Source: Bacteroidia bacterium
GTDB taxonomy: Bacteria; Bacteroidota; Bacteroidia; SpSt-205
Assembly (NCBI GenBank): GCA_025054525.1
Contig: JANWZJ010000002.1
Span: 393-64,392, forward strand
Length of the DNA stretch: 64,000 nucleotides
Reading direction: 5' to 3'
How positions within the stretch are numbered: position 1 is the first letter of the stretch; every line of letters starts with the position of its first letter. This document shows positions 38,004 through 58,873 of the stretch, in pieces. Both the position numbers and the translations under genes were made by a program. The notes under the pieces were generated by a model. It did no database searches and was not told where the DNA came from. It worked only from the letters and a program-made list of their open reading frames with translations.

Positions 38004-38609
38004 TTATTGAGATTGTTTAGTGGAGTTGGCTTCTTCCTGAAGGCCTTGAGCTCGTAGCTGCTGCACATATAGAATAACCTTCCAACGCTCTTCAGGGGTA
38101 AGCTGAGAAGCATGAGAACCCATGAGGTTTTTACCATAGGTGATACTATGAAACATCTTCCCTTCGGGTAAATCTTTGAGCTGAGGCCCATAGTAAGAAG
38201 GTACTTGGGGATATTTCCCTTTCTCTACGATAGTTCCCCTACCGTTTCCTTTTTCGCCGTGGCAGTGAATACAATAATACTCATAGAGTTTCTTCCCTTC
38301 ACTTATGTTCTCAGGCGTGGGAGGGAGGGGGTTTTTGAGCTTTTTGCCTGCTTCCTCATATCCTTCATTCGTATTGGGGAATGGATAGACGAAATCTGCC
38401 TTACCCTTAGGTACGGTACCTGCCACGGGCTCTCTAACATGTTTGCCATCTGAGGAGTAGGTATAGTAGTCGGTCTGAGAATAAGGGTCCAAAGGAATAG
38501 AGTGATACATCTGAGGAGCGTATTCTATGCCTGTATCTCTGGGGTCAGAGGCAGCACAGCCCCAAAGGATGAATGCAGTAAGCGCTAATAACCAGGAGTA
38601 CCCTATCAT
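38004..38609 (-). CDS. actE: Alternative complex III subunit ActE (monohaem cytochrome c, lipoprotein-like).
   Basis: Single CIHCHG haem-binding motif, an N-terminal signal with Cys, and correct operon position. Confidence 0.7.
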   Translation of the reverse strand: MIGYSWLLALTAFILWGCAASDPRDTGIEYAPQMYHSIPLDPYSQTDYYTYSSDGKHVREPVAGTVPKGKADFVYPFPNTNEGYEEAGKKLKNPLPPTPENISEGKKLYEYYCIHCHGEKGNGRGTIVEKGKYPQVPSYYGPQLKDLPEGKMFHSITYGKNLMGSHASQLTPEERWKVILYVQQLRAQGLQEEANSTKQSQ

Positions 38610-39112
38610 ATCTCTATGATCTTGATGTCAGTAGCACCAGTTTTACGAAAAACCTCCTGAGCCCGATCCCATGCGCTTTCTTCGGCAATCGCCACGACCA
38701 TCGCGTCATCTGTCTGACGCACATCATATACTTTAGCTTTTCTACCAGGATAAAGGCGATTGACGAATAGATAGGAGAAAAACATAAGCACTCCTGCAAA
38801 AAGCACGGTAAGCTCAAAGGTTACGGGAATAAAGCTCGGAAAAGGCAAGAAGGATTTCCCCCCTATATTGACACGCCAATCTATGTTATACATGTAGGTC
38901 TGCATGCTGAGAGCCGTGAGCGTACCCATCGCTCCATACACGAAGGCTGCGTCGGGCAAGCGAGATTTGCGCAGATGAAGAGCAGAGTCCAGACCATGTA
39001 CAGGAAAGGGCGTGCATACTTCATGGATAGGCACTTTCTCTCGCTGGAGAGCTTCCACACCTACAAGTAACTTCTCCTCATCTTCATATAGCCCGATAAG
39101 GTACTTCGCCAT
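38606..39112 (-). CDS. actD: Alternative complex III subunit ActD.
   Basis: At about 168 aa it is a membrane-associated protein between actC and actE, consistent with ActD. Confidence 0.6.
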   Translation of the reverse strand: MAKYLIGLYEDEEKLLVGVEALQREKVPIHEVCTPFPVHGLDSALHLRKSRLPDAAFVYGAMGTLTALSMQTYMYNIDWRVNIGGKSFLPFPSFIPVTFELTVLFAGVLMFFSYLFVNRLYPGRKAKVYDVRQTDDAMVVAIAEESAWDRAQEVFRKTGATDIKIIEI

Positions 39113-39118
39113 AGACTA

Positions 39119-40573
39119 TCAAGTTGTAGAGGATTCAGGGTTCATGGCAGGTTGAAGCACGGGAGCGAAAGCACCCTCCCGCTTTTTAGCTTGATAGGTT
39201 TCCCAGGAGAGTCCTGCATATTGATCGCCCGAAGTCTTGAGAATGCTCTTTGTTTCAGCGGCTGCGATTACAGGCAGGAATCGCGCAAACAAGAGATACA
39301 GCGTGAGGAATAGCCCAAAGCTGCCTACCAATATCGTAACCTCCACCCAAGTAGGCGTGTACATGCGCCAAGAAGAAGCCAAAAAATCGCGATGTAGCGA
39401 GGTTACGATAATCACAAAGCGCTCAAACCACATGCCGATATTCACGAAGATAGAGATGACAAAAACGAACCATGGACTGCGACGCAGCTTTTTGAACCAG
39501 AAGACCTGGGGGATAAAGAGATTACAAGTTACCATAGCCCAGTAGGACCACCAGTAAGGACCGAAGGCTCGGTTTAGGAAGATGTAGCGCTCCCAGTAAG
39601 AGCCAGAATACCACGCAATAAAAAACTCCGTAGCATAGGCAAAGCCCACCATCATACCGGTAGCCAAGGTTACTTTTGCCATGGCGTCTATGTGCTCCAG
39701 AGTGATGTAATCCTTGAGGTCAAGCACTTCTCGGGTAATGATCATGAGTGTGAGCACCATTCCGAAGCCGGAGAAAATAGCGCCTGCCACGAAGTAAGGA
39801 GGAAAAATGGTAGTGTGCCACCCAGGTAGGATAGAGGTGGCAAAGTCAAAACTCACGATAGAGTGCACGGAAAGCACCAGCGGCGTAGAGAGCCCTGCCA
39901 GTACCAGAGATACCGCTTCAAATCGTTGCCATTGTTTGGCACTGCCGGTCCAGCCGAAAGAAAGGATACTATAAGCTATGTGGGCAAAGCTACCAGGGCG
40001 AGCCCTATCGCGCACCATCGCCAAATCAGGAATAAGGCCCGTATACCAAAAGAGCAAGGAGATGGTGAAGTAGGTGCTGATTGCGAAAACATCCCATAGC
40101 AGAGGAGAGTTGAAGTTGACCCAGAGGGAGCCGTGAGTGTTGGGCAGGGGCAAAAACCAGAACGCTAGCCATGGACGCCCCATGTGAATGATGGGAAAGA
40201 GCCCTGCACAAATAACTGCGAAAATCGTCATTGCTTCGGCAGCCCGATTAATCGCCATGCGCCAGCGCTGCCGGAAAAGCAAAAGAATTGCCGAGATAAG
40301 CGTACCCGCATGCCCGATACCTATCCAGAAAACGAAGTTCGTAATGTCAAAAGCCCAGCCTACGGTTTTGTTGAGGCCCCAAGTACCGATGCCTACCCAT
40401 ATGGTATAAGCTATCGCCGAAAACCCAGCAAACATGACGAGGGCCGTGAAACCCGTAGTGAGGTACCATTTCCAGCTGGCAGGTCCCAAGATGGGAGAGA
40501 CTAAGTCATCCGTGATTTTGCGGTAGGTTTTCCGCCCTGTGATAAGCGGTTCTCGTATAGGGCTCTCAAACAT
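39119..40573 (-). CDS. actC: Alternative complex III subunit ActC (NrfD-family quinol-interacting membrane subunit).
   Basis: About ten TM helices, polysulfide-reductase NrfD-like, following actB. Confidence 0.8.
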
Positions 40574-40575
40574 AG

Positions 40576-43500
40576 TTATGCGGGTTTAGGTTGTGAGATT
40601 TCTTCGTTGCGGACTTTGACCATATACCGGATGGAGGGGCGAACGTTGAGCTCAGCAAGTGCATAGTAGCCACGCGGTTCTTGGGAGAGGCGACTGACAA
40701 GGCTTTCGGGATCGTTGAGATCACCGAAGACAATAGCGCCAGTTGGGCATGCCTGCTGGCAAGCAGTTTTGACATCTCCCTCTTTCAGGGGACGCTGCTG
40801 CTTCTTTGCTTCCAGCTTAGCGGCTTGGATACGCTGCGTACAAAAGCTGCACTTCTCCATTACGCCCCGAGCCCGCACGGTTACGTCAGGATTAAGAACC
40901 ATGCGGCCCAACTCATCCACAGGATTGAAGACCCAGCTCTCCGAGTTAGTATAATCAAACCAGTTGAAGCGTCGTACCTTGTAAGGGCAGTTGTTAGCAC
41001 AATAGCGGGTACCTACGCAGCGGTTATAGACTTGTTGATTGATGCCTTCGGAGCTATGGGCTATAGCCAAAACAGGACAAACCGTCTCACAGGGGGCATG
41101 ATCACAGTGCTGACATAGCATAGGTTGGAAAAATGCCCGCGGAAAGTCTTCTGGGGATGCTGCGGGAAACTCTTCTGGTTTGCCTGTGTGCCCTACCGTG
41201 GAGGTAAAGTAGCGGTCAATCCGAATCCAGTGCATGTCCCGACCACGACGCATTTCGTCCCGACCTACGACAGGGATATTATTTTCGGCGACACAGGCCA
41301 CTACGCAAGCCCCACAACCTATGCACAGATTGAGGTCAATCGCCATGCCCCAACGGTGTCCAGGTTGTGGGTGCTCTATCCACCACAGATTGATAAGTTC
41401 AGGCTCTTCGTGATTGCCGGCACGAGGATTTTGCTTATAGGCGCTGAGCGTCGTCTCCCGAATATACTCCCGTCCTACATAGGTCTCCCACTGCTGGATT
41501 CGAGCCAGCTCATAGGTACCACCTGTTTTTTGAAGTTGTATAGCAGGTAGGAAACTTATGCGATTACCAGATTCAGTTATTTGGAGGAAAGGGTAAATGT
41601 TTTGTCCAACCCCCACGGCTGCTCGTCCACCTGTTGTGCGGCCGTACCCCATCGCCACCCCTATGGTGCGGGGCGCCGTTCCCGGCAAAACATACACGGG
41701 TAGCTCTACCGACTTATCTCCTGCCGTAATCCGAATGACATCATTCGTCTTGAGTCCCTGCTCGCGTGCCAAAAGCGGAGAGATGACGGCATAGTTATCC
41801 CAAGCCACACGAGATACAGGGTCTGGCATCTCTTGAAGCCAGGGATTACCCGCATTCGTGCCGTCGCCTATGGCCACTTTCTCATAGACGTACAAGGTTA
41901 GAGGCACTTCATCCTCCATAGAAGGAAGCTGAGCAGCCCACTGAACAGGGTTCCAGTTTGCTTTGGGAGCAGCCGAGACGGAGGTCATATCCACTACACC
42001 TCTCTCCAGAGCATGCAGCCAGAATGTCTCAGCGTTATCAGTAGGCAGAGGAGGCTCAGTGGATACCCAGAAAGCCTGCTGCTTGCCTTTCTCCTTGTCT
42101 CGGAGGTAGGCCTGGTAGGCAGGGTACACAGACTTTTCCCAGAAAGCCTTCAGATAATCCAGTGTGCTCTCACCGCGCCCAAGCCATGCCAAGAGTATCT
42201 CTGCAAAAGAACGAGTGGAAAATATGCGGGCAATTGTAGGCTGCTGCAGCGTAAATAAGCCTTCATAAGGTTGCGCATCTCCCCAGCTCTCTAAATAATG
42301 ATCCTCGGCTAAAATGTATTTGCAGCGCTTGGCTGTCTCATGAGCATGAGTAGAGATTGCGACAGTAATGGGGGATTTTTCTATCGCTTGTGCCACCCTA
42401 TCGCTCTGGGGATGATCATAGAGGGGATTAACCTGATGGAAAATAACAGCACCCACCTTACCTTCCTGCGCATCCTTAAGAAAGGTTTCAAAATCCGCAT
42501 CTTTTCCTGCACGCAAGTAGCAGCCTGGGTCTACATATAAGGTATTTCCGTAACTCTCTAAGAGCAAGTTGATACCTACGACTACAGCTTGAAGCACAGG
42601 GATTTGGGCATGGGCAACTACGAGTGCTTTGCCTCGGCTTTCCCAGAGCTTCTTGGCTACATGTGATATATCACCATTGGCCGTGTCCCATTTATCGCTG
42701 TTGAGTGAGGGCTGTCCAGCCAACTCAGCTATGCGATTATAGAGGTTGATGATGGCACGGCGCACCTCTTGGGGATTGAGCGCTATACGGCGGTCCGCAC
42801 TGAGTCCCGTAATCATGGGTACAGACTCAAACTGCACATGATAAGATATATCATTGCGCCCACCGTACAACTTGCGGTTCTCAGACCACTGACGCGCGAA
42901 AGTGGTGGGGTCTATCCATGTACCTAAAAAGTCAGCATTGAGCCCCACTACCACCTGCGCTTTATCAAAGCGGTAAGTAGGGAGTACCCTACGACCAAAA
43001 ACCGCCTCATGGGCACTCAAAATAGCATCATATGAAATGGCTGAGTACTCCACATGACGAGCATTTTTGAGGGAGCCCTGCCATGCTTGAATAAGACTGC
43101 GCAAACTGGGACTTACCACAGGAGGGGTTATGAGATAAATCAGCTTCCCTTGGGTATCCTGCGCCTTTAGCTGCTCCATTAGGGCACTTCCAAGTGCAGA
43201 CCAATCTGACTCTTTGCCTTCTATGAGTGGCTTTTGAAGCCGAGTGTGGTCATACAAGGAAAGAACAGAAGCCTGTCCCCGTGGATGAGTACCACCTCCT
43301 TGGGGCGAATAAGATGGGTTGCCTTCTATCTTAATAGGACGACCCTCCCGTACCTTGACAAGGACTGATTGAAAAATTTGACCATCAAAGTAGGAGGAGG
43401 CATAATACGTGGGTATCGTGGGAAGGTGTTCAGCTGGTTTTTTGACGTAAGGCAGCGCATACTTGACAGGGGTTTTTTCACATGCTGCTAATACCGCTGC

Positions 43501-43602
43501 ACTGAGCGTAATCCCACACCAGCGCAGGAAATCCCTGCGATCTCCTCGCAGGGATTCGGAGAGTAGCTCTTCTACAGGAATATCGCGAGAAAGCTCTTGC
43601 AT
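40576..43602 (-). CDS. actB: Alternative complex III subunit ActB (fused molybdopterin-oxidoreductase-like and 4Fe-4S ferredoxin-like domains), Tat-exported.
   Basis: Tat motif RRDFLRW, a large MopB-like domain, and C-terminal Cys clusters ([25 protein letters not shown], CxxCxxRIQ). 1008 aa. Confidence 0.85.
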
Positions 43603-43603
43603 C

Positions 43604-44782
43604 TTAGTAATGACATTTGGAACATTCTAGTCCGCCCAACTTTTCCACAGTTACCTCTTTCTCCTTGTAGTAAGCATGAAGCCGTGCATAGTAGGGATTA
43701 GCTGTTAAGTCCACTTTTGTTTGGCGATGGCAGTTGATACACCAACCCATGCTTAGGTCGTTATATTGATACACCTCTTCCATTTCTTCTACAGGTCCGT
43801 GGCAAGTCTGACAAGCTATACCTCCTACCTTCACATGCTGGGCATGACTGAAATACACATAATCAGGCAGGTTGTGAATCCGAACCCATTCTATGGGCTT
43901 GTTTTCTTGATAAGAAGCTAAGATTTTGCCTATTTCCTTATTCCCATAGCGGGAACCCTCTTGAATGTAAGTGTGGCAGTTCATGCATATGTTGGTGGAG
44001 GGGAAAGTAGCCGACTTCCCCTTCTCTACTCCGATATGGCAGTATTGGCAAGCGATTTTGTATTCGCCAGCGTGAGTCTTATGAGAGAAGGCAATGGGCT
44101 GTACGGGCTGATAGCCCTTATGAAGTCCTACGGAACGAGCCTTTTTGATAGTAGCACTACAGAACCAGAGAAAAGCCACAATCCCAGCTATTCCCCAGAA
44201 GCGAGGCGAAGCCATAAAGTTTCCGACCTGCTGGAATATACCTCGTTCCGAGGACTCTTCTTTTTCAGGGCGCAACACCCGAGAAAGCGATAGCGTAGTG
44301 ATAAATAAAGCGATAGCGATAGCCCCCAGTGCTATAGTTAGCACCCATAATAGAGGGCTTGTATCGGAGGGGGCACTTCCGCCTGCTGAACCCGCACCGC
44401 CACCACCCGCAGCACCTGAAGCAGTGTTGGCAGTTTCTGCGGCTGCACTCTCTGCCTTGATGTAGTCCAAGATAGACTTAATCTCATTGGGGGAGAGCGC
44501 CGTGAATGCAGTCATCACGGCTTTATTGTACTCCTCGTATAGCTTCTTAGCATAGGCCGAATTTTTGAAGTTGCCGTTGATATAGGCTTGGGAATTCTGG
44601 ACAAACTTGATGATCTCTGCTTCATCCCCCCAGCGTTCATGGACGCCTTTGAGAGCGGGACCGACTACTCGTCTATTGACAGCGTGACAGGAAGCGCAAT
44701 TGGCCTGAAATAAGGCTTTTCCATCTTGTGCCCACAGGAGTAGCCCTAAACCGATGAGCGCCCTACGCATAGGCATTTTCAT
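43604..44782 (-). CDS. actA: Alternative complex III subunit ActA (pentahaem cytochrome c) with an additional N-terminal monohaem class-I cytochrome c domain.
   Basis: Six CxxCH motifs: CASCH in the N-terminal domain, then CQYCH, CMNCH, CQTCH, CINCH and CSKCH. A signal peptide, a Gly/Ala-rich linker and one TM helix separate the two parts. Confidence 0.8.
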   Translation of the reverse strand: MKMPMRRALIGLGLLLWAQDGKALFQANCASCHAVNRRVVGPALKGVHERWGDEAEIIKFVQNSQAYINGNFKNSAYAKKLYEEYNKAVMTAFTALSPNEIKSILDYIKAESAAAETANTASGAAGGGGAGSAGGSAPSDTSPLLWVLTIALGAIAIALFITTLSLSRVLRPEKEESSERGIFQQVGNFMASPRFWGIAGIVAFLWFCSATIKKARSVGLHKGYQPVQPIAFSHKTHAGEYKIACQYCHIGVEKGKSATFPSTNICMNCHTYIQEGSRYGNKEIGKILASYQENKPIEWVRIHNLPDYVYFSHAQHVKVGGIACQTCHGPVEEMEEVYQYNDLSMGWCINCHRQTKVDLTANPYYARLHAYYKEKEVTVEKLGGLECSKCHY

Positions 44783-44817: not shown

Positions 44818-45468
44818 TCATTTACGCGGAACAAGTGCCCTTAGAGAGTCTATCTGTTTCTGAAGGCTAATGACATAGAGAGTAAGCTCCTCTACCTTCT
44901 GCAAGAGAGCAGCTTGCGTGGTAAGAAGGGGTACTCCCGATTTGTTTATCTCTTCCCCAGAAGGCATCCCAGGCAAATGGCGATGACGCTGAATATACTG
45001 CTCTACCTCATAAAGAGAGCGCAACTCATATCCCGGAGCGAATACATAATCTGGCCAGCGTAGATTTTTGTCCTTAGCGTAAATCTCGGTGACAGTAATG
45101 GGAGCCTGAAACTCAAAGGGTGCGGAGACTATACCTCTACCATCTCCATAGATAATAAACCTATCGTAATAAGCATCATCCACTTTTTGGACGACGGCGA
45201 TGGCTTTGGTGGTCTGGGCTTTTTCACCTCCTATGGTAGCCTGCAAAGCATAACTCCATTCCTGATTAGGCTCATAGCTCACAAATAAGCCTCCCCTGCC
45301 AGTTCCCAAGCCGACTTGTAGAGGTTCTCTGAGGATATAGGATTTCTGTTCGGGGTCATACTCTAAGTTACTCGAGCAGCATGCGTTGATTGCTACAGAG
45401 GACAGTACAAATACGGCGCTACGCATCACTGCTTTGTGCATGCCGCAAATATACGAGCTTCGCAGCAT
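44818..45468 (-). CDS. Small signal-peptide/lipoprotein-like protein with a C-terminal Peptidase_S74 (chaperone-of-endosialidase / tail-fibre) domain. The start is probably the internal Met at 45426.
   Basis: The C-terminal block WPDYVFAPGYELRSLYEVEQYIQRHRHLPGMPSGEEINKSGVPLLTTQAALLQKVEELTLYVISLQKQIDSL matches the conserved intramolecular-chaperone domain of the Bacteroidetes tail-fibre-domain proteins. The N-terminus MRSAVFVLSSVAINAC is signal/lipobox-like. Confidence 0.55.
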   Translation of the reverse strand: MLRSSYICGMHKAVMRSAVFVLSSVAINACCSSNLEYDPEQKSYILREPLQVGLGTGRGGLFVSYEPNQEWSYALQATIGGEKAQTTKAIAVVQKVDDAYYDRFIIYGDGRGIVSAPFEFQAPITVTEIYAKDKNLRWPDYVFAPGYELRSLYEVEQYIQRHRHLPGMPSGEEINKSGVPLLTTQAALLQKVEELTLYVISLQKQIDSLRALVPRK

Positions 45469-47950
45469 GGGAAAGGCACTTATCCTCTGGCTGCAGTTCG
45501 GGTCTTTTCCCTTTGCCTACAGAGAAGATGTGCAAGAGATACGACTTTTCCCTGACTACGGGGAAGGTGTGTGGATAGGGTGTCGCACCTTGAGACAGAC
45601 ACGCAGCGGGGTCTTTATCTACTATGTAGATGCAGTGGGCAACTGGCTCTTTGGAAAAGCTGGTATTTGCCTGTCTTGTCGCGACTCCGCCTCGGTCATA
45701 CGATGGGACGCCGTAGCAGGAGAAAAAAACTTACTGTACGCAGTGAGGCAGACCCGTCATACTATTCGGCTAAGCGCTATAGAAAGGACAGGCAAGCTCC
45801 ACTGGGAACACACCTTACCTGCAGAAGAAGGAGAGTTTCGGCTTTTAGCACATCCAAGCGGGGGCATTTTACTGCTTCAAGCCTCTGAGAAACAACTTAG
45901 CCTCAAAAGCTGGGACAAACAAGGCGCCCTTCGGTATAACGTGGATGGGATAGTCTCCGAACGGATGAAGAGACATCCGCTTCTGCTATCTGTAAACTTA
46001 GAAGGGTTCTTTCTCCTATGGGAAGAGTTTGACGGGACGAAATGGCAGGCCGTTTTGCAGAAATGGTCATGGGAGGGCAAAGCCTTAGCAGCCCCTACCC
46101 CCCTTTCCGGCTTTGCCCACAGTGTAGAAAGAGCCCAGTTTATCAGCGATGGCTTCGGAGGGGTGCTCGGGGTATATGAAGCCACTTCCTTATACGGCGC
46201 TGGAAAGGATTTACACTTCGTCCGATATAGCCGAAGCGGACAACGAATCGTGGAAACGCCAATCTGTACAGAAGCGGGAGACCAGCAAAACCCTCGCCTA
46301 TATAAACGAGGCACAGAGCTTCTGGTCACCTGGGAAGACAATCGGCAACAAGATTGGGATATTTATTTCCAACGGTTAGATATTCGTACAGGGCAAGCCC
46401 TCCTCCCTAATCAGGGCACGCCACTGGTACGCCTGCCAGGCGTACAGGAGTCGCCTGAACTGCTCTTGGACTATTTCCAAAACGAAAGTATAGTAGCTTG
46501 GGTAGATTATAGGCATCTGCAAGGTGATTTATACATGCAGAGGGTTTCTGCGGAGGGGAAGCCACTTTGGGAGTTTGCGGGGCGCCCCTTAGTAGCGAAC
46601 CCTTACCAGCAAAAGAAGCTACAAAGTGCCCCTCATGATTTGAGACACTTCTGGATAGCCTACGCTGAAGAGCATCCTTATGAAGGAACGCATGCCTGGG
46701 TAATACTACTTTCGGTAGAAGGGAAAGAGCTCTTTCGGCGAAGGCTTGGCGGCAATACCCAGACCAGCACCCCAACTATTGGCGAAATAACCTGCCAGCC
46801 TTGGAAAGAAGGGAAATTAGTGGTATGGACGGAAGACCGAGACTCGGCGGGTCTATTCCAGTTATATGCCCAGTATTTGAAAGCCAAAGGAGAGCCTCAG
46901 TGGTTACCAATGGGATTGCCCTTGGCTCCCCAGCCCCAACTCCACCAAAAAGAGCCTCTCTTAGCGACTCGGGGGGATACCGCTTGGATTCTATGGAAAG
47001 GAGAAGAGTCAGAAGTGGAAAGCGACCTCTTTGCCCAAGCGATTACGGTGGAGGGTAATCGCTTATTCCTGCCTAATCCTCTCCCCGTATGCATAGCTGA
47101 TAGGGTACAACATGAAGCGCGCTGGCTCTCCAGTTCTTCCGCCCTATATGCCTATTGGAGCGATAGCCGCAGCATGGAGGAAACGGGCTTTGACCTGTAT
47201 CTGCGCAAAATCGTACCGTTAGCGCCTGAGCAAGGCTGGCAAACTCGTCTCGGCTTTCAGAACACCTCTTATCTCCTGTCTGCAAAAGCAGAGTATTATC
47301 ATCATTTCTGGCAAGAGGAGGAGGGAAGGCGCTATCGCATTTTCTACGGGAGAGGTCGGGTGGGAGAACCCTATCCTGTTCAGGCGCTCATTCCTAATGG
47401 AGGGGCACAGCGCTTCCTGCATGCAGAAGTACATCCTCAAGGGTATGCTTATGCTGCTTTCTGCGAAGAGTCGCCAGGTCCGTATCAGCAAGCCGTACAC
47501 TGCTGGGTCATAGACCCAGAAGGTAGAGTAGCTGCCCATTTTCGCTCGCCGCTGGGACATACGCATCACCTCTATCCCCGGGTATTCTTGCTTTCTGATC
47601 AGGAAGTCGCCTTCACCGCCATAGCACAAAGCAAAACTGGCAGCTGGGAACTCCTTTATCTAACTGTCTCCCCCTCAGGAGAACTCCGGGAAAAAGGCAT
47701 CCTCCTCTCCCCCATTCCTGAAAAATGCCAGTGGCACCTCCTCAAAGACGCTTCGGGCTACTGGCTCTTCCTACAAGCAGGAGATACCCTCTGGGTTTAT
47801 ACGGGAGAGAGGCTTTCTGCCCTGCATAGCCAGACCCGCCCCTTCATTACTCCCAAAGCATACCCAATCCTCTACGAGGGCCGCGCCCACCTCTTTTTGT
47901 GGGATAAATCCCAGCATCACTGGCAGCTTCTACCCCTTAGTAGGCAATAA
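45386..47950 (+). CDS. Large beta-propeller protein with divergent PD40/TolB-like repeats, of unknown function. The true start is possibly at 45440 or 45470 (MGKALILWLQFGSFPFA looks like a signal peptide).
   Basis: Recurring modules of the form W-[DE]-D/x-R…D-[IL]-Y-x-Q-R…G-x-PL, for example WEDNRQQDWDIYFQRL, WVDYRHLQGDLYMQRV, WTEDRDSAGLFQLYAQY, WSDSRSMEETGFDLYLRK. Confidence 0.45.
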   Translation: MIATEDSTNTALRITALCMPQIYELRSMGKALILWLQFGSFPFAYREDVQEIRLFPDYGEGVWIGCRTLRQTRSGVFIYYVDAVGNWLFGKAGICLSCRDSASVIRWDAVAGEKNLLYAVRQTRHTIRLSAIERTGKLHWEHTLPAEEGEFRLLAHPSGGILLLQASEKQLSLKSWDKQGALRYNVDGIVSERMKRHPLLLSVNLEGFFLLWEEFDGTKWQAVLQKWSWEGKALAAPTPLSGFAHSVERAQFISDGFGGVLGVYEATSLYGAGKDLHFVRYSRSGQRIVETPICTEAGDQQNPRLYKRGTELLVTWEDNRQQDWDIYFQRLDIRTGQALLPNQGTPLVRLPGVQESPELLLDYFQNESIVAWVDYRHLQGDLYMQRVSAEGKPLWEFAGRPLVANPYQQKKLQSAPHDLRHFWIAYAEEHPYEGTHAWVILLSVEGKELFRRRLGGNTQTSTPTIGEITCQPWKEGKLVVWTEDRDSAGLFQLYAQYLKAKGEPQWLPMGLPLAPQPQLHQKEPLLATRGDTAWILWKGEESEVESDLFAQAITVEGNRLFLPNPLPVCIADRVQHEARWLSSSSALYAYWSDSRSMEETGFDLYLRKIVPLAPEQGWQTRLGFQNTSYLLSAKAEYYHHFWQEEEGRRYRIFYGRGRVGEPYPVQALIPNGGAQRFLHAEVHPQGYAYAAFCEESPGPYQQAVHCWVIDPEGRVAAHFRSPLGHTHHLYPRVFLLSDQEVAFTAIAQSKTGSWELLYLTVSPSGELREKGILLSPIPEKCQWHLLKDASGYWLFLQAGDTLWVYTGERLSALHSQTRPFITPKAYPILYEGRAHLFLWDKSQHHWQLLPLSRQ

Positions 47951-48009: not shown

Positions 48010-48972
48010 CTATTCCGCTATGACGAGGCGCTGCATGAGCGCACCTTGCCTATCCTCTATAAATACCATGTAGAAGCCTGCGGGCAGGCGGAGCGCGTGG
48101 GTGTGCTCACCTACAGGGAACTCATTCGTGTAGACATATACTTCTTGCCCAGCTGCATTCACGACACGCAGTGTGAGCTTTCCAGGCATAGTTACCGAGA
48201 AGAAGGCTTGCGTTTCTCCTATAGCAGGATTAGGAGCAAGGGTGAAGTGGCGAATGCTCTCTGGGGCACGGGCTAAAGAAGCGGAAAACTCCCGCATAGC
48301 ACACAGACCTGGGTCGGGAGGGTTCACCCCTACAAAAATGATATAGTTGAAGAAAGTATCAAGGTAGCTGCGTGTACCTGCAAAAATTGGAGCTAAATTG
48401 GTAGTGTCCTTGTTAGGTGCATCGCCCGCAAGTGGATTAGGCACAAAGGCTCGTACCTTGACCCTAAGTGTATCCTGCCCTGAAGTGGCTCCTGTCTTGA
48501 CACAAATCTGAGCGCATCCTATGGGTGGTGTAGCTCCCGGTGCACCCCCTGGATTCTGATAAACTACGAAGTTTGCTTGATCGGCAGCGTTACTGGAGTA
48601 CTGCTTACGCCGATGCATCTGGTGGAAGCGTATCCCGCCCTGCGCCGGATTAGAGGAGTTATAGGCGAATGGAGAGCCGTCGCGGTTAGTGAATAACCCT
48701 AGGACAAGCCGCAGCGAGTCCACCCATACTGCGTAGTTAGGATATATCAGGGTGCCTCCCGACCTACTAGAGTCTGGGAAGCTAAAATAGACGACAAAGC
48801 TTGTGTCTTTATTCGTAGGAAGGCACACGACCTGCGGGTTGAACCCAAAGGGGCGAGGGCTTCGGTCTGCGCGGGGCGTACATTCATTACATTGTGCCCT
48901 AACCAGAGAAGGCACAAGGAGTACGGATAGGATAATCCATGCGTATCTCATATCAGTACAAATATACAGCAA
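48010..48972 (-). CDS. Secreted T9SS cargo protein (type-A CTD) of unknown function.
   Basis: N-terminal signal MRYAWIILSVLLVPSLVRAQ. The C-terminal roughly 75 aa (…LAPNPAIGETQAFFSV…GFYMVFIEDRQGALMQRLVIAE) matches the Por sorting domain. Confidence 0.55.
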   Translation of the reverse strand: MLYICTDMRYAWIILSVLLVPSLVRAQCNECTPRADRSPRPFGFNPQVVCLPTNKDTSFVVYFSFPDSSRSGGTLIYPNYAVWVDSLRLVLGLFTNRDGSPFAYNSSNPAQGGIRFHQMHRRKQYSSNAADQANFVVYQNPGGAPGATPPIGCAQICVKTGATSGQDTLRVKVRAFVPNPLAGDAPNKDTTNLAPIFAGTRSYLDTFFNYIIFVGVNPPDPGLCAMREFSASLARAPESIRHFTLAPNPAIGETQAFFSVTMPGKLTLRVVNAAGQEVYVYTNEFPVGEHTHALRLPAGFYMVFIEDRQGALMQRLVIAE

Positions 48973-49000
48973 AACGCATAAATAATTCTACCTTTGGGTC

Positions 49001-50842
49001 ATGGGGCGATACCGACGCCCACTTGTAGAGCTGAGCGAACTCCTCCAAACTCCTTGGCAGCGAGTGATTTACAAACTGGCGGGCCCCTGGGTAGAGAAGG
49101 TAGTAGGCATAGAGAAGCTAAACCATTTTTATGAATTGTGCGAGGAAGAAGGCATGCAGCCTGGGGATTTTGCTCGCAGGGTCTTGGAAGTGATCGGCGT
49201 CCAGTATGTGCTCCCCCCTCCGCAGACCTTAGATAGCCTGCGCAAGCACACAGGTCCCTTCGTAGTAGTTTGCAATCATCCTTTTGGAGGGATAGAGGCA
49301 ATCTTCTTGGTACTCTTTCTGAGTGAGATTCGGGCGGACTTCCGCATCATAGCGAATCTCTTCTTAGAGCGAGTGGCAGAAGTACGAGATGCGCTTTTAC
49401 TGGTAGACCCTTTTGGTCGGGAAGGCTCGCGCCAGTTTAATCTACAGCCTATCCGTCAAGCCTTACAATATCTCAAAGACGGGGGGCTCTTGGGGATTTT
49501 CCCCTCTGGTGAAGTGGCCAGCCTGAACCTGCGCACGGGCAAAGTGCGCGAGCCAGACTGGAATCCCCTGGTGGGTCGGCTAATTTTGCAAAGCGGTGCC
49601 TCCGCCTTGCCGCTGTATTTTCATGGAACGAACAGTCTGCTTTTTCATTTGGCGGGGCTTATCAATCCCAGACTACGCACAGGGCTACTCATTCGGGAGT
49701 TTGTAGAGCCTGCTGCTCGCAAAGTACATTATCGCATAGGTAAAGTCATTCCTTTTGAGAAGCTCCAGGCGTTGGAGACTGCCGAAAAAATCACGGAGCA
49801 TTTGCGCAGTCGTACCTATCTACTGGGGGAAGTGCTGGAGAGTCGGCGTCGGCGCTTACGGCTGCGGCGATGGCGCCTTCCTATGCTTGCTACAAACTCA
49901 GAGCCTGACTCTGTTATTGAGCCTTTATCGGCTGAGATGATAGAAGCACAGATTCGCGGGTTGCCTCCCTCCCAGCGCTTAGTCTCGCAAGGGGAATGGG
50001 AAGTCGTGGTATTTCGGGGCAGTCAGCAGCCTCTACTTCTGCAAGAGATTGGCCGGCTTCGGGAAATCACCTTCCGCGCCGTAGGAGAAGGAACAGGCAA
50101 AGCCTGCGACACCGATGAATATGACCAGTGGTACGATCACCTTGTACTTTATCACACCCGAGATAAAGCCATCGCTGGGGCCTATCGTATCGGCCGCTGC
50201 GATGAAATCCTCCAAACTCGCGGACTGCGCGGGCTCTATATCTATTCACTTTTTCACCTACCCAGAAGGATGTTCAAAGAGATAGCTCCTGCTTTGGAGC
50301 TGGGACGAGCATTCATCTTGGAAAAGTATCAGCGTTCCTATGCACCGCTCTATCTGCTCTGGCGCGGTATCGGTGAATACATCCTGCAACAGCCCCGGTA
50401 TCGCTTCTTGATTGGTCCTGTGAGCCTGAGTCCCCGGCTCTCTGAGCTTACGAAGGCTTTTATTGCATTCTACCTCCAAGAAAACTATAGTAGTGCTGAA
50501 TTAGCCCAAGAGGTCAAAGGCCGCACCCCCTATACCCCTTCCCCTACTTTACGCCAATACTACTACACCGTATCCGTCCAATCCCTCCAAGATGTCCAAG
50601 ACCTCATAGAAGAACTAGAAGGCAGTCATATTCGCATTCCCATCCTTATTAAGCATTATCTCAAGATGGGAGCACGAATTTTAGCGTTCAACATTGACCG
50701 ATCCTTTAGTAATGCAGTGGATATACTAATGGTTACAGACCTTGTCAAGGCAGAATCCGAGCTTATGCGCAAATACATGGGGACAGCAGGATACGAGCGT
50801 TACCTCCGCTATCATGAGCAGCCACTTCCTACCTCAGGATAA
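49001..50842 (+). CDS. Bifunctional acyltransferase with an N-terminal PlsC-like O-acyltransferase domain and a C-terminal OlsB-like GNAT N-acyltransferase domain. It is an OlsF-like aminolipid (ornithine/lysine/glycine-serine lipid) synthase.
   Basis: The N-domain has lysophospholipid-acyltransferase motifs (VVCNHPFGGIEAI and GIFPSGEV). The C-domain resembles OlsB-type N-acyltransferases (…EIGRLREITFRAVGEGTGKACDTDEYDQWYDHLVLY…). At about 610 aa it matches OlsF size. Confidence 0.5.
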   Translation: MGRYRRPLVELSELLQTPWQRVIYKLAGPWVEKVVGIEKLNHFYELCEEEGMQPGDFARRVLEVIGVQYVLPPPQTLDSLRKHTGPFVVVCNHPFGGIEAIFLVLFLSEIRADFRIIANLFLERVAEVRDALLLVDPFGREGSRQFNLQPIRQALQYLKDGGLLGIFPSGEVASLNLRTGKVREPDWNPLVGRLILQSGASALPLYFHGTNSLLFHLAGLINPRLRTGLLIREFVEPAARKVHYRIGKVIPFEKLQALETAEKITEHLRSRTYLLGEVLESRRRRLRLRRWRLPMLATNSEPDSVIEPLSAEMIEAQIRGLPPSQRLVSQGEWEVVVFRGSQQPLLLQEIGRLREITFRAVGEGTGKACDTDEYDQWYDHLVLYHTRDKAIAGAYRIGRCDEILQTRGLRGLYIYSLFHLPRRMFKEIAPALELGRAFILEKYQRSYAPLYLLWRGIGEYILQQPRYRFLIGPVSLSPRLSELTKAFIAFYLQENYSSAELAQEVKGRTPYTPSPTLRQYYYTVSVQSLQDVQDLIEELEGSHIRIPILIKHYLKMGARILAFNIDRSFSNAVDILMVTDLVKAESELMRKYMGTAGYERYLRYHEQPLPTSG

Positions 50843-50856
50843 GATACCTTTGTAGC

Positions 50857-51633
50857 ATGTACGAAACTATCCTGTATGAAGTCAAAGAAAGCATAGGTTA
50901 CCTCACTCTGAATCGTCCCGATCGCTATAATGCGTTCAACGAGAAGATGAGCGCGGAGCTTCTCCAAGCCCTGCGAGAAGTACGCCGGGACAAAGCCGTG
51001 CGTTGTGTAGTACTGAAAGGGGCAGGCAAAGCCTTCTGCTCAGGGCAAGACCTCAAGGACATCGTAGGCGTGAAGCGTTCTTTGGGCGAATCGGTAGAGA
51101 AGCGGTACAATCCGATGGTACAAGCCCTTCATGAGCTGGAGAAACCCGTAATAGCCTGCGTGAATGGAGTAGCTGCGGGGGCGGGAGCTGGCTTAGCCTT
51201 GGCGTGTGATTATGTGATAGCGGCACGCTCGGCTTCTTTCGTGATAGCGTTTGTCAACGTAGGACTTTCCTTAGACACAGCGACTTCCTTTCACTTAGTG
51301 CGCACGATTGGACTCAAAAGAGCATTTGCTTTAGCGACTTTAGGGGAGCGTATCAATGCAGAGCAGGCACTGGCTTGGGGCATGATTAATGAAGTCGTAG
51401 AAGATGATAAGTTAGCGGAGGCAACCCATGCATTAGCCTTGCGCTATGCGGCTCAGGCGCCTCGGGCTTTGGCGCTGATTAAGAAACTCTTGCTGCGTAG
51501 CTTTGAACGCGGATACGAAGAAGCGCTTCGCTATGAGTACTTCTATCAAGAGGTAGCGGGGCGCACTCAGGATTATCAGGAGGGGGTACAAGCCTTCGTA
51601 GAAAAGAGGAAACCGGTTTTCAAGGGCGTATAA
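50857..51633 (+). CDS. Enoyl-CoA hydratase/isomerase (crotonase) family protein.
   Basis: Crotonase-fold motifs (…LNRPDRYNAF…, oxyanion-hole region GAGKAFCSGQDL, ACVNGVAAGAGAGLALACD). Confidence 0.8.
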   Translation: MYETILYEVKESIGYLTLNRPDRYNAFNEKMSAELLQALREVRRDKAVRCVVLKGAGKAFCSGQDLKDIVGVKRSLGESVEKRYNPMVQALHELEKPVIACVNGVAAGAGAGLALACDYVIAARSASFVIAFVNVGLSLDTATSFHLVRTIGLKRAFALATLGERINAEQALAWGMINEVVEDDKLAEATHALALRYAAQAPRALALIKKLLLRSFERGYEEALRYEYFYQEVAGRTQDYQEGVQAFVEKRKPVFKGV

Positions 51634-52345: not shown

Positions 52346-52880
52346 GCTTCAAAATACGCGACCAGCTCTGGATGATGCGCTGGATACGCTCTTTATCTTG
52401 GGTTGCTAAAACGGGCAAAGCCACCTCTACCGCTGCCATCAAAATCCCCACTATCTCCTCCATCTGCCTAATCACATGATAGGTGTGCGCATCCTTTTGT
52501 ACATCTTCTCGCTTGATAAGCGTTTGTAGAAGTTCCTTCACGGGCACAATCTCTCGCTCAAAGCGTTTCTGGATGATACGCGCCGCAATCAGCCAAATAT
52601 CCTTAGTCGCCGTGTAGAGAGAGCGACGCGTGTTAGGCAGGTCTATTTTCTGGATCAATCCCCATTCCAACAGTTTGCGCAGGTTAATGCTGGCACTGCC
52701 GCGACTAATGCCTAACTGTTCTATGAGGGTGTCCGCATCTAAAGGTTCGGGATACACATACAGCAGCGCAAATATCTGAGCCATCGCAGGCCCTATGCCC
52801 CACGCATAAGCTAACCGCCCCCATACTTCTATAAGTCGTTGCTGGGCAGGCGTGAGAACTATACGCTTTTCCTGGTACAT
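52272..52880 (-). CDS. Winged-helix transcriptional regulator (GbsR/MarR-like). The start is set at the internal Met MYQEK…, because the track ORF to 53075 is an upstream extension.
   Basis: The HTH region DADTLIEQLGISRGSASINLRKLLEWGLIQK is typical of GbsR/MarR-type repressors. Its 3' end overlaps the RluA gene. Confidence 0.45.
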   Translation of the reverse strand: MYQEKRIVLTPAQQRLIEVWGRLAYAWGIGPAMAQIFALLYVYPEPLDADTLIEQLGISRGSASINLRKLLEWGLIQKIDLPNTRRSLYTATKDIWLIAARIIQKRFEREIVPVKELLQTLIKREDVQKDAHTYHVIRQMEEIVGILMAAVEVALPVLATQDKERIQRIIQSWSRILKRDGNRLSGLAAGGDSEAGGDPVPS

Positions 52881-53907
52881 TTGGGATGTGCTTAGGCAAA
52901 GATATGTAGTTGGTATAGTATGGGGGTTGATGGTGGGGGGATGTTCTACCGAGGTGGATTTAGTAGCGCCCGAAGCCCGAGAACGCTTGGTAGTGTATGG
53001 TATTCTGCGCACGGACTCTGACTCGCAGTACATCCGTATCGGGAAACTTTTCGTTACCCGAGGGAATGCTGCCAACTACGCCAGCCAGAATGACCTCAGC
53101 GTAAAGGCACGAGTACGATTGAGAGATGAATCGGGACGGGAATGGCTGGGTATTCCTGAAACCGTGGGGAAAATCCCATCCCAGCCCTTTTATCCTATAC
53201 ATACCGTGTATCGGCTCCATATGCGCCCCATCCCTCGGCAGCGCTACTTTCTACACATAGAGGTGCCTGAAAATCCCAGCTTGAATGTAGAAGCGACTAC
53301 GATTGTGCCTTCACCTCCGTACTTAGCGCGCCCCGAGAGCATAGTCTATTTAGGACCAACTCCCTCTTACCCCTCTATAGACCTGACGAAAAAAATAATC
53401 TTTACTTTCTTCCCCCAGTATGAGTCTCACCTACCTGTTTTAGCAGCGGCATACGAGCTTAGCTTCTTTTTTCATTATAGGAAGGTGGTAGCCCCTGGCG
53501 ATACCCAACAGCGCAGATTTGGGCTGGGTCCAATCAGAGTGCCTCACCAGCCCACGACACGCGCTCAAGCATACACTTTTGCCGAAAAAGCCCTCCTTCG
53601 CCAAGCCTATGCTTCCATTCAGCCAGAAACTGGTATGTCTTTATATGATGCCAGTCCCCTGAGCCAAGCCTGGGGTTTAGACCTTACCGCCATAGATACA
53701 GCCTTATATCAGTACCTACGAGCTAATGACCCAGCGACTACCGACTTTACCACCGTCAAGCCAGAATATACCAATATACGCAACGGCTTAGGGGTTTTTG
53801 GTTCGGCGGCACCAGCTCGCCGCTATTTTCGGATAGACCCCTGCTCGGAATACCTACTTCGCCTCAATAATGCCCCGCGCCCTTATACTACTTGTAACTT
53901 AGAATGA
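52852..53907 (+). CDS. Hypothetical lipoprotein (possibly DUF4249-like), translationally coupled to the downstream histidine kinase.
   Basis: Signal plus lipobox-like segment …GIVWGLMVGGCSTE, and an ATGA overlap with the HK start at 53904. Confidence 0.35.
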   Translation: MRTIRFSWYIWDVLRQRYVVGIVWGLMVGGCSTEVDLVAPEARERLVVYGILRTDSDSQYIRIGKLFVTRGNAANYASQNDLSVKARVRLRDESGREWLGIPETVGKIPSQPFYPIHTVYRLHMRPIPRQRYFLHIEVPENPSLNVEATTIVPSPPYLARPESIVYLGPTPSYPSIDLTKKIIFTFFPQYESHLPVLAAAYELSFFFHYRKVVAPGDTQQRRFGLGPIRVPHQPTTRAQAYTFAEKALLRQAYASIQPETGMSLYDASPLSQAWGLDLTAIDTALYQYLRANDPATTDFTTVKPEYTNIRNGLGVFGSAAPARRYFRIDPCSEYLLRLNNAPRPYTTCNLE

Positions 53908-58200: not shown

Positions 58201-58851
58201 GTCATAGAAAAGCAGGTCCTTACCACTTACTGCCCAAACTCCGTAGCTATCCTCACAAACGATGGGGCTTTGAGAGAGAGTTATACTTTCTGGTATGGGG
58301 AAGGCTTCTATGCGCTGACCATCCCATCGCATAAGGTATCTCGGCGAACTCGCCCAGATATCCCCAAACTTTCCCATCGTCATATAATCAAAGCGCTTCC
58401 CTTGCCACATCCATATCTTAGAGAACTGCTCAGCCAATACCCCCCCAGATGACATATAACTCACTGCGTAAGTCTCTGTTATTCCTGGTTTTTCCTTACG
58501 CTCAAATGAGTGATAGAAGCGCCTCTGAAGTAAAAATCTGCCTTCCTGCAGGGATAAAGAGATTTCAGGGGCGATTTTGGCTGAGAAGGGGTCTGGTACA
58601 GTAGCCGAACGCATGCTTACTTGTGTAGGGCTAAGGCTTGAACCCGAGAGATAGGGAGATAAAAGCTGATAAGGTCGCAGGCTTAGCTCCTCAGAAGCCG
58701 GGGCTTCATAGGACTCTATGCTTTGCTCATAGACGAAGTGGGAGAGAGCCGAAAACAGAATCAGTACTACGCCGAGCGTGGACAGGACAAAGACTGCGAT
58801 CCCAGCAAGTATCCACCACCGCAAGCGCCCAAAGAACTGGCGCATAGGCAA
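55240..58851 (-). CDS. Transmembrane sensor protein with a large extracytoplasmic beta-propeller/Y_Y_Y-type ligand-binding region, a TM helix, coiled coil and a C-terminal SpoIIE/PP2C (RsbU-like) phosphatase domain.
   Basis: N-terminal TM helix, a roughly 800-aa region rich in W/Y beta-propeller-like repeats, a second TM helix (YILYGILGIGAVLLFV), a coiled coil, then SpoIIE motifs FFSPPSVKGDEELLMLVADCTGHGVPGAFMS and LYFSSDGYTDQ. Confidence 0.7.
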   Translation of the reverse strand: MPMRQFFGRLRWWILAGIAVFVLSTLGVVLILFSALSHFVYEQSIESYEAPASEELSLRPYQLLSPYLSGSSLSPTQVSMRSATVPDPFSAKIAPEISLSLQEGRFLLQRRFYHSFERKEKPGITETYAVSYMSSGGVLAEQFSKIWMWQGKRFDYMTMGKFGDIWASSPRYLMRWDGQRIEAFPIPESITLSQSPIVCEDSYGVWAVSGKDLLFYDGLHWYHKSLSFSYSIILPHPQEGVILAQPWEHKLYRLSRDSLWEISFGEIRIFPIGWIEDTLVAAFSQSDRQGLLFWRENSVKIGYATVSLWRSPASMARGEGRNKIVFASDAGTFVYASGKLHRVAEMPPLLPHHLAVSKKGILMGTQGTYLFVSSHEGEWITNNTDFVQLNLAFVGYEGELWLARSFGETENFIAVVQDDLVEEVQLPFQNTIQDLCALQDKLWLLSDSGGLWRGTGRSWEYVGGSPSLGGCRLLPDPIHSDLWIVGSAPLMRFRSSVWEIFPIDSVERVSVLGDKLWILRKGVLYANNIPLPWRDVRFIGRAGEQALWVVRDSGVYVIWRDTLWLADRGRYEGLTIDSQERLWCERSSRKGQSAICYELNPRNETVHRFELGFAEGLQGTSRFIGGTDTLWWQSEKNRLSGLVAGSVSYRRYQYSLVSKAGLSLISATNPAYVYMSFATEVQKVAQGLWRDKRGVFLLTGGKVYFYQQDSQAHAIPAPRLRLRIRTIAPVLHRWASWLQKEIELGPSSGLLEENSNAVPLELAVPLPTLETRGKWPAPSWASFETSYFSYDLTFTFSPAGRLRDLPDIEYRYRLVGYGNATWSRPSRDPRAYFYHLPEGEYTLEVRARRLGGQWSSPARWSFRVAPPLWRTTAAYILYGILGIGAVLLFVRYRVRALRRQAAYLQEEVRKATATIQAQNQALLAANQELEFQRKLAEAQKQDLIDSIAYAQRIQRALLPSAAILQRFFPESFVFFLPRDLVSGDTYWFFSPPSVKGDEELLMLVADCTGHGVPGAFMSLLTLSLIERVVKEIPHASPGTMLDTLSAQIIRMLNPDQGEEIKDGFEGVLCRFRRSSQGWYLEYAAARRSFWRVRGDKVEEFPKDPIPVGLSEIPALRGSKFTTHTLTLEKGDWLYFSSDGYTDQLGGEMGQRFGIKRFRVLLQELTGMPASAQPERLKATLDAWRIPRRLPQVDDVLVVGVKIG

Positions 58852-58873
58852 AGATAATGCTCCAAGCCATGAC

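Follow-up and report, generated by a model that had tools for sequence, protein, structure and literature searches.

A diverged OlsF-like two-domain acyltransferase in an uncultured Bacteroidia bacterium is a probable acyloxyacyl-aminolipid synthase

The window analysed here, a stretch of 64,000 nucleotides from an uncultured Bacteroidia bacterium, contains a gene (49001..50842, + strand) whose predicted product raises the question of whether a single enzyme could carry out both acylation steps of aminolipid synthesis in this organism and, if so, which amino acid would provide the head group. The coding sequence begins with ATG and encodes a protein of 613 aa, a length matched by an independent gene call. 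Since the N-termini of homologues with 65-75 % identity are conserved (MGRY/MGSY/MARY/MSRY...RRPL) and the independent call also gives 613 aa, the ATG at 49001 is supported as the start codon. The protein corresponds to the database entries MCS6789500.1 / MDW8235225.1 (NCBI), where it is called 'lysophospholipid acyltransferase family protein'; a further database name found for it is 'putative hemolysin', and both are generic family labels. An earlier note on this DNA had instead described it as an OlsF-like bifunctional acyltransferase, and the motifs quoted there are all found in the translation: NHPFGG at residues 92-97, FPSGE at 167-171, RLREITFRAVGEGTG at 352-366 and DTDEYDQWYDHLVLY at 370-384.

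Domain searches located two distinct acyltransferase domains on this one polypeptide, in the arrangement expected of OlsF. PF19576 (Acyltransf_2), the N-terminal domain common to all OlsF and GlsA proteins, is matched at residues 21-280 (49061..49840, + strand) with 33.4 bits against the Pfam cut-off of 27. PF13444 (Acetyltransf_5) is matched at residues 353-454 with 72 bits against the Pfam cut-off of 22.4, within a C-terminal GNAT N-acyltransferase domain that spans residues ~305-600 (49913..50800, + strand), where the earlier note had placed an OlsB-like domain. The description of the N-terminal domain as PlsC-type is correct at the level of the fold but not of the sequence, where the matching family is PF19576 and PF01553 (PlsC/OlsA type) is below threshold in this domain (16.9 bits versus the Pfam cut-off of 23). 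Because a PDB sequence search with the protein gave no match even at E = 1, we compared folds using an AF2 model, which is confident (pLDDT 88, pTM 0.81). In this comparison, the N-terminal domain resembles GPAT/PlsC, having the alpha/beta acyltransferase fold of that superfamily and a core that carries the catalytic His block at its N-terminal end, and the C-terminal domain resembles LasI and the N-acyl amino-acid synthase FeeM. The two halves consequently have different folds, GPAT/PlsC and LasI/FeeM-type GNAT, and do not belong to one haemolysin-like family.

The motifs that characterise the O-acyltransferase part of OlsF, NHxxGxxD/E and FPxGE, are both present. NHPFGGIE (N92, H93 ... E99; 49274..49297, + strand) is the family version of the acyltransferase H-x-D/E catalytic block, in which N92 and G96 are invariant and H93 and E99 at least 90 % conserved across 114 sequences, all four being invariant in a 16-sequence alignment. 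FPSGE (residues 167-171; 49499..49513, + strand), the equivalent of acyltransferase block III, contains F167 and P168, which are invariant in the 114 sequences, and the nearly invariant G170. The conserved residues of the C-terminal N-acyl amino-acid synthase domain are also intact. No transmembrane helix was detected in the protein, the maximal 19-residue hydropathy (1.76) falling in a stretch within the catalytic core. The inter-domain helix has a polybasic end (ESRRRRLRLRRWRLPML, residues 280-296; 49838..49888, + strand), which may serve as both an interfacial membrane-binding segment and a linker.

To place the protein within known families, we compared it with the NCBIfam models for aminolipid synthases. 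The OlsF model NF052615 is matched end to end in a single segment, in which residues 22-593 cover profile positions 21-569 of 570 (E 1.3e-106), and this full-length alignment, along with scores above the Pfam thresholds for both domains, bears out the earlier proposal of an OlsF-like two-domain acyltransferase. The score of 357.5 bits nevertheless falls short of the equivalog cut-off of 620 bits, and no other homologue tested scores as low. Calibration of the model revealed that the Enterobacter homologue alone passes (793 bits), whereas the Vibrio chromosome-2 type (424), the Flavobacterium type (414), the Desulfovibrio types (399-419) and the homologues from all other phyla (372-444) fail. 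Since Vibrio-, Flavobacterium- and Desulfovibrio-type homologues also fall below it, the cut-off marks the limits of the Enterobacterales subclade, not those of the function, and we rejected it as a boundary of functional membership. Each half of the protein scores higher with the OlsF model than with the models for the separate enzymes (N half, 128 bits versus 69 for GlsA; C half, 230 bits versus 118 for GlsB and 50 for OlsB), and the protein falls outside both the OlsB/OlsA and GlsB/GlsA families, with 48 and 42 bits on the OlsB models (cut-offs 350 and 320), 115 bits on GlsB NF053696 (cut-off 300) and 66 bits on GlsA NF053697 (cut-off 260). The fused OlsF-like family is very large, comprising ~1,500 clusters at 50 % identity, and the gene product is a diverged but ordinary member of this well-known family.

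The extent of this divergence is apparent from its identity to other members, which is ~29 % for the Enterobacterales type, 32-34 % for the Vibrio and Flavobacterium types and 38-39 % for Desulfovibrio-type homologues, and reaches at most ~47 % outside its own clade. The genome scan with alignment returned 80 loci, mostly from MAGs; the characterised genes of Serratia, V. cholerae and F. johnsoniae were not among them. Comparators obtained by tblastn of plasmid and chromid records (a Vibrio chromosome-2 homologue, Enterobacter and Flavobacterium plasmid copies and a Bacteroidales glsA-glsB pair) are relatives of the characterised enzymes, not those enzymes themselves. NJ trees, in which the lineage of the window protein is resolved but the deep branching is not, group it with proteins of uncultured Bacteroidota at 100 % bootstrap and give no supported link to any validated OlsF. 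By these sequence comparisons, its lineage, one of uncultured Bacteroidota, is distinct from that of the Flavobacterium OlsF proteins. In the same trees, GlsB/GlsA fall together with Enterobacter and Aeromonas proteins, which may be a consequence of long-branch attraction.

A Bacteroidota-type -7 box, TACCTTTG, is present at 48989..48996 (+ strand), 4 nt upstream of the ATG of the olsF-like gene, at the position where a -7-like element had been reported. This box is conserved in five relatives and, because it sits only 4-5 nt before the ATG (also in L002, L003, L004 and L006), the transcript would be leaderless or nearly so; the olsF-like gene would be transcribed from this box, independently of its neighbours. 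A sigma-70 promoter scan of the locus was uninformative in this Bacteroidota genome. The flanking genes, considered here as context only, are those named previously: upstream and divergent, a gene for a T9SS-sorting-domain protein of 313 aa (48010..48951, - strand; C-terminal sorting domain TIGR04183, 34.5 bits), and downstream, a gene for a crotonase-family enzyme (50857..51633, + strand; PF00378, 221 bits). The spacer of 28 nt given for the divergent pair is probably too short, since it takes an upstream TTG at 48972 as the start of the T9SS gene. An independent gene call agrees with the ATG at 48951, the signal peptide MRYAWIILSVLLVPSLVRAQ begins there, homologues align from there, and the gene's own conserved -7 box, TATATTTG (48966..48959, - strand), falls within the TTG extension, and for these reasons a spacer of about 49 nt is more likely.

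Considering this evidence as a whole, we think it probable that the product of the gene is a bifunctional OlsF-type acyloxyacyl-aminolipid synthase, with ornithine as the most likely head group and possibly lysine as well. By analogy with the OlsF literature, from which the reaction order and the roles of the domains are taken, the C-terminal GNAT domain (~305-600) would transfer a 3-hydroxy fatty acyl group, supplied by an activated donor, onto the alpha-amino group in the free amino acid, most likely ornithine and possibly lysine too, yielding a lyso-aminolipid. The donor would be acyl-ACP or acyl-CoA, a choice that is also not established for characterised OlsF. The N-terminal Acyltransf_2 domain (~21-280), with H93 and E99 as its putative catalytic residues, would then form an ester between the 3-hydroxyl and a second fatty acid. 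The predicted end product is a phosphorus-free membrane lipid made by a single peripheral membrane protein, which may associate with the membrane through the polybasic helix. No OlsC/D/E/G-like gene for modification of ornithine lipid was detected in the window among the 46 ORFs scanned against Pfam, which include 43 of the 51 that reach 150 aa or more; the few ORFs outside the scan include 29865..30929 and 30935..32023, the others being mostly overlapping or shadow ORFs.

The identity of the head group is the least secure part of this assignment, and the earlier note had held that it could not be predicted from sequence. It is not wholly unpredictable, since residue patterns and model scores tend to favour the ornithine/lysine type over the glycine (GlsB) type. 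Every fused OlsF characterised to date makes ornithine lipid, the F. johnsoniae enzyme also making lysine lipid, and this product is maintained even at 30-33 % mutual identity, as seen for the Serratia enzyme, the two V. cholerae paralogues, the F. johnsoniae enzyme and that of D. alaskensis, where a Dde_3661 mutant lacks ornithine lipid; no fused OlsF has been shown to date to make anything beyond ornithine or lysine lipid. The same two-step chemistry could nonetheless be directed to another amino acid (glycine, serine, glutamine...), either by a fused counterpart of GlsA/GlsB or by an enzyme with a new head-group specificity. This is in keeping with the 118-bit match of the C half to the GlsB model, the order of the Bacteroidales glsA-glsB genes, which equals that of the fused domains, the separation of the lineage from every validated OlsF and the faster evolution of the C-terminal domain among close relatives, at ~2x the rate of the N-terminal domain (distances 0.35-0.46 versus 0.20-0.28); the Bacteroidota also have the most diverse aminolipid head groups among phyla. 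Scores on the GlsB and GlsA models are, however, far under their cut-offs (the genuine B. finegoldii proteins reach 543 and 443 bits, respectively), and GlsB groups elsewhere in the tree, at the largest distance from the window protein (2.0). Moreover, 16 positions show a conservation of 90 % or more across 87 fused OlsF-like proteins and differ in both GlsB sequences, and at 15 of them (the sole exception being S484T) the window protein matches the OlsF state, although these positions rest on just two GlsB sequences and could reflect fused versus split architecture and not substrate. They include the acidic residues E363, E540, D566, D574 and D580, which GlsB lacks. Genuine GlsA and GlsB reach 170 and 206 bits on the OlsF model, about as much as the halves of the window protein (128 and 230), so that HMM scores do not decide which head group is used. 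On this evidence, we regard an amino acid other than ornithine or lysine as unlikely. It is also unlikely that the fast-evolving N-acyltransferase domain of this separate lineage of fused synthases, in uncultured and apparently geothermal Bacteroidota, has acquired a head-group or acyl-donor specificity undescribed for fused OlsF, which could take the form of a glycine or serine preference, lysine lipid as the sole product or the use of unusual acyl chains of thermophiles.

Two further explanations bear on the chemistry and on the neighbouring genes. The database names and the GPAT/PlsC-like fold of the N-terminal domain would be consistent with a lysophospholipid acyltransferase or a 'haemolysin'-type protein acyltransferase that acts on glycerophospholipids or proteins and makes no aminolipid, but the names are generic, PF01553 is sub-threshold, the C half is OlsB/GlsB/FeeM-like with its conserved residues intact and experimentally validated OlsF aligns collinearly with the protein over its entire length, so that we consider this activity highly improbable. 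We give equally little credence to an operon with the crotonase, in which hydration of enoyl-CoA would supply the 3-hydroxyacyl donor, or to functional coupling with the divergent T9SS gene. The crotonase gene follows after 14 nt with no terminator found between the two, and 3-hydroxyacyl-CoA is the product of enoyl-CoA hydratases. Against this, the crotonase adjoins an olsF-like gene in none of the 80 related loci (the downstream genes of relatives being Nramp/SOD or ThiC/SDR), is preceded by a TACCTTTG box of its own (50845..50852), lying 4 nt ahead of the ATG, and finds its best model in a PaaG-type isomerase, with a score below the cut-off. We rejected it as a partner in donor supply on grounds of synteny and of its own promoter box; it is a chance neighbour of the olsF-like gene. 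The T9SS gene is divergent in three relatives, with the promoter boxes back-to-back, but this pairing is restricted to the three closest genomes (L002, L003 and L006; 69-75 % identity), and is lost in L004 and L005, a pattern that recent common descent would be expected to give, and a functional partnership is unlikely.

If the preferred assignment as an OlsF-type synthase is correct, this uncultured Bacteroidia bacterium would make phosphorus-free acyloxyacyl aminolipids with one enzyme, and the likely producers of ornithine lipids would extend to another Bacteroidota lineage. Phosphorus-free aminolipids have been linked in other bacteria to tolerance of phosphate limitation, heat and acid stress. 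There is also a lesson for annotation, as the NCBIfam OlsF cut-off catches the Enterobacterales subclade only, with the result that the validated Vibrio, Flavobacterium and Desulfovibrio types, as well as the window protein, are labelled 'lysophospholipid acyltransferase'. The gene does not challenge current understanding of these lipids.

Amongst known systems, the FeeM/LasI acyl-ACP-dependent GNATs and the PlsC/GPAT structures have just 13-16 % identity to the window protein and are single-domain proteins with other acceptors. OlsB/OlsA of Sinorhizobium and Pseudomonas share the reaction scheme, and OlsB is distantly homologous to the C-terminal domain (42-48 bits), but their genes are unfused and OlsA is of the PF01553 PlsC type whereas the N-terminal domain here is PF19576. 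In the Bacteroidales glycine lipid/flavolipin pathway, GlsB is a homologue of the C-terminal half and GlsA of the N-terminal half; the two are encoded by adjacent genes in the order of the fused domains and share the logic of N- then O-acylation. They are, however, two proteins and not a fusion, and GlsB carries small insertions (e.g. after residues 377 and 449) that the window protein lacks. The fusion found here, in the order PF19576 then PF13444, is that of OlsF (Spro_2569; Fjoh_0833; VC0489 and VCA0646; Dde_3661). Although the window protein is diverged from these enzymes, scores below the NF052615 cut-off, falls in a lineage of its own among uncultured Bacteroidota and has a predicted product, it is collinear with them over ~570 residues, contains the same conserved blocks and resembles them in length (~570-620 aa) and in having no transmembrane anchor.

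The olsF-like gene (49001..50842, + strand) has exactly the position given in an earlier note on this DNA. It encodes a 613-residue protein from an ATG start, and the four peptide strings quoted in the note are all present in the translation: NHPFGG (residues 92-97), FPSGE (167-171), RLREITFRAVGEGTG (352-366) and DTDEYDQWYDHLVLY (370-384). An independent gene call on a public contig yields an identical 613-aa product, which is listed at NCBI as MCS6789500.1 and MDW8235225.1 under the name 'lysophospholipid acyltransferase family protein [Bacteroidia bacterium]'. Because homologues of 65-75% identity share its N-terminus, the start codon can be relied on. Searches against Pfam revealed that the C-terminal half matches PF13444 (Acetyltransf_5, the OlsB-type GNAT family; residues 353-454, 72 bits against a cut-off of 22.4), the model that the earlier note had proposed for this domain. 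The N-terminal half, described there as PlsC-type, is indeed an acyltransferase domain, but it belongs to PF19576 (Acyltransf_2; residues 21-280, 33.4 bits, cut-off 27) rather than to PF01553, the PlsC/OlsA family, for which it scores 16.9 bits against a cut-off of 23. PF19576, not PF01553, is the family found in GlsA and in the N-terminus of OlsF (PMC11631085). The NCBIfam model for OlsF, NF052615, aligns as a single stretch from residues 22-593 to profile positions 21-569 of 570 (E 1.3e-106, 357.5 bits), with weaker NCBIfam matches to GlsB (115 bits) and OlsB (42-48 bits) in the C-terminal half and to GlsA (66 bits) in the N-terminal half. When the halves are scored alone, the OlsF model also gives the highest values, with 128 bits versus 69 for GlsA in the N-terminal half, and 230 bits versus 118 for GlsB and 50 for OlsB in the C-terminal half. 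The end-to-end alignment, together with both Pfam domains scoring above their cut-offs, supports the original interpretation, and the protein is very probably an OlsF-type acyloxyacyl-aminolipid synthase.

Since the score of 357.5 bits falls far under the 620-bit equivalog cut-off of NF052615, we calibrated this model on other homologues. Among those tested, only the Enterobacterales-type protein, from Enterobacter hormaechei (Serratia-like type), passed the cut-off (793 bits). A Vibrio chromosome-2 homologue of the V. cholerae VCA0646 class scored 424 bits, one from Flavobacterium 414 and those of two cultured species of the Desulfovibrio type 399 and 419; another six, from other phyla, fell within 372-444, and the protein studied here had the lowest score of all. 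Yet the enzymes that have been characterised in the classes failing the cut-off do work: VC0489 and VCA0646 of V. cholerae, with no more than 33% and 30% identity to Serratia OlsF, give rise to ornithine lipid in E. coli (PMC12186959), F. johnsoniae OlsF produces ornithine and lysine lipids (PMC12971839) and a D. alaskensis Dde_3661 (olsF) mutant is without ornithine lipid (PMC5193443). The 620-bit cut-off therefore marks an Enterobacterales subclade and not function, and the Vibrio, Flavobacterium and Desulfovibrio types (399-424 bits), being under it, receive generic PGAP names.

A sequence search of the PDB gave no match to the protein. AlphaFold2, given 114 homologues, produced a confident model (mean pLDDT 88.3, pTM 0.81), in which a long helix (residues 261-296) and a short low-confidence linker connect two alpha/beta domains. 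The folds of the two halves differ, which argues against the alternative that both derive from one haemolysin-like acyltransferase family. No transmembrane helix was found in the protein, and the end of the inter-domain helix carries a polybasic stretch, ESRRRRLRLRRWRL (residues 280-293, window 49838..49879), which may help to bind the membrane interface as a possible anchor; close relatives retain it (SRRRRLRLRRMR), distant ones less so. Across the 114 full-length homologues, N92, G96, F167 and P168 are invariant, and conservation reaches 90% or more at H93, E99 and G170. On the basis of this conservation N-H-x-F-G-x-x-E is the predicted catalytic block, the OlsF family's form of the acyltransferase His/acid dyad. 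Invariant residues in the C-terminal domain are G351, R352, R354, E355, E363, G364, D370, D375, Y378, Y395, R396, E433, R436 and Q444. Following the OlsF literature, the C-terminal domain would attach a 3-hydroxy fatty acid to the amino group of an amino acid, yielding a lyso-lipid, the 3-hydroxyl of which would then be O-acylated by the N-terminal domain.

The earlier note held that the head group is not predictable from sequence. This stands as far as HMM scores are concerned, because the OlsF model gives even true Bacteroides GlsA and GlsB scores of 170 and 206 bits, but residue-level comparison provides a weak lean. From an alignment of 87 fused proteins and two GlsB sequences we selected positions at which conservation among the fused proteins is 90% or higher and both GlsB differ. 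Of the 16 positions obtained (L321, E363, H380, G398, G411, Y413, Y467, L470, S475, S484, E540, N564, D566, D574, L576 and D580), 15 have the fused-OlsF state in our protein, the exception being S484T. Five of the 16 are acidic in the fused proteins and are lacking or replaced in the two GlsB sequences, a pattern that would fit binding of the cationic side chain of ornithine or lysine. The 16 differences, drawn from a comparison with only two GlsB sequences, could instead mirror fused versus split architecture. Ornithine, possibly accompanied by lysine, is the likelier head group, and some other amino acid is rather unlikely.

The -7 box proposed for this gene, TACCTTTG (48989..48996, +), fits the Bacteroidota consensus TAnnTTTG and is kept 4-5 nt before the ATG in four relatives. 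The divergent upstream gene (48010..48951, -) does carry a T9SS sorting domain (TIGR04183, 34.5 bits). It most likely starts at the ATG at 48951, giving 313 aa with the signal peptide MRYAWIILSVLLVPSLVRAQ, so the spacer is likelier to be 49 nt (48951..49001) than the 28 nt first reported. A conserved -7 box of its own, TATATTTG (48966..48959, -), precedes the ATG of this gene by 7 nt. Within the spacer the two boxes stand back to back, 22 nt apart, an arrangement kept in two relatives, so the promoters must overlap physically and may compete for RNA polymerase. The T9SS gene is kept upstream in the three closest genomes only, and recent shared ancestry therefore fits better than functional coupling. 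Across the window, 12 of 41 TAnnTTTG boxes have, within the next 15 nt, the ATG of an ORF of 100 aa or more (1.5 expected), at least one of these ATGs being an internal Met, at 16811 within the AcrB gene. Many genes have such a box 3-7 nt before their ATG; besides the boxes of the olsF-like gene and its two neighbours, examples are those at 18216..18223 (+), 22868..22861 (-), 30942..30949 (+), 30934..30927 (-), 45453..45446 (-) and 58856..58849 (-). Judged from this excess, leaderless or near-leaderless transcripts appear common in this genome, perhaps even the norm, and probably include that of the olsF-like gene.

The crotonase-family gene noted downstream is present, starting 14 nt past the olsF-like stop codon, with no terminator found between them. 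We regard the two as neighbours with no functional connection: a separate TACCTTTG box (50845..50852, +) precedes the crotonase ATG by 4 nt, and in none of 80 related loci is a crotonase beside the olsF-like gene, the relatives having Nramp/SOD or ThiC/SDR downstream instead. No ornithine-lipid-modifying genes were found elsewhere in the window among 46 ORFs compared with Pfam, which take in 43 of the 51 ORFs of 150 aa or more. Two genes upstream of the olsF-like gene, just past the T9SS-tail gene, an 854-aa ORF (45386..47950, +), the 3' end of which also occurs on a Logan contig (L001), has no Pfam match at E <= 0.001, and a 546-aa ORF (21216..22856, -) has none at E <= 0.0001. At least three T9SS cargo genes are present (4211..6076, 6150..8774 and 48010..48951, all -), with CHU_C or Por_Secre_tail sorting domains and, in two of the three, PKD domains. 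An alternative complex III operon (36729..44782, -) encodes a multihaem cytochrome c, a 1008-aa Fe-S/molybdopterin-like subunit, an NrfD-like membrane subunit, ActD and a cytochrome c, as well as a protein of 423 aa that matches nothing in Pfam. An unusual trio at 33114..36292 (-) combines a 485-aa membrane O-acyltransferase of the MBOAT family with a 373-aa membrane-fusion protein of the HlyD type and a third protein, of 213 aa, that likewise has no Pfam match; it might serve to acylate a polymer or lipid that is exported. A DUF4249 protein (52852..53907) adjoins a MarR-like regulator.

The OlsF-like protein has all its closest relatives (65-75% identity) in MAGs of uncultured 'Bacteroidia bacterium' (KatS3mg025, SKW103, SKYG57 and RSWP8), whose names and the papers citing them suggest an origin in geothermal springs. 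The next nearest (40-47%) are likewise uncultured Bacteroidota, and the remaining homologues (36-42%) come from Desulfovibrionales, Verrucomicrobiota, Planctomycetota, Balneolales, Nitrospirota, Gammaproteobacteria and others. In neighbour-joining trees, one per domain, the protein and the four close MAGs form a 100%-supported clade, which the N-domain tree extends, with equal support, to eight uncultured Bacteroidota. The C-terminal domain, which selects the amino acid, is about twice as diverged between close relatives as the N-terminal one (distances 0.35-0.46 versus 0.20-0.28). This clade is apart from the Flavobacteriales/Cytophagales OlsF lineage, and Bacteroidota contain at least two separate fused OlsF-like lineages. 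GlsA and GlsB lie at the greatest distance from the clade (2.0-2.5); the trees resolve the clade itself but not the deep branches, and long-branch attraction may explain why GlsA/GlsB group with Enterobacter and Aeromonas. The family comprises 1,493 clusters at 50% identity (E <= 1e-30), nearly all matched full-length, and OlsF homologues were already known from five Bacteroidota orders and many phyla (2026 review). The protein is a diverged new member of a known, very common enzyme family and not a new kind of system. In the glycine lipid pathway the genes are split, with glsA followed by glsB in Bacteroides finegoldii (locus L085, 1480..3341) and Parabacteroides distasonis (locus L090, 358..2169); since this gene order is the domain order of fused OlsF, it fits a relationship by fission or fusion between the two systems.
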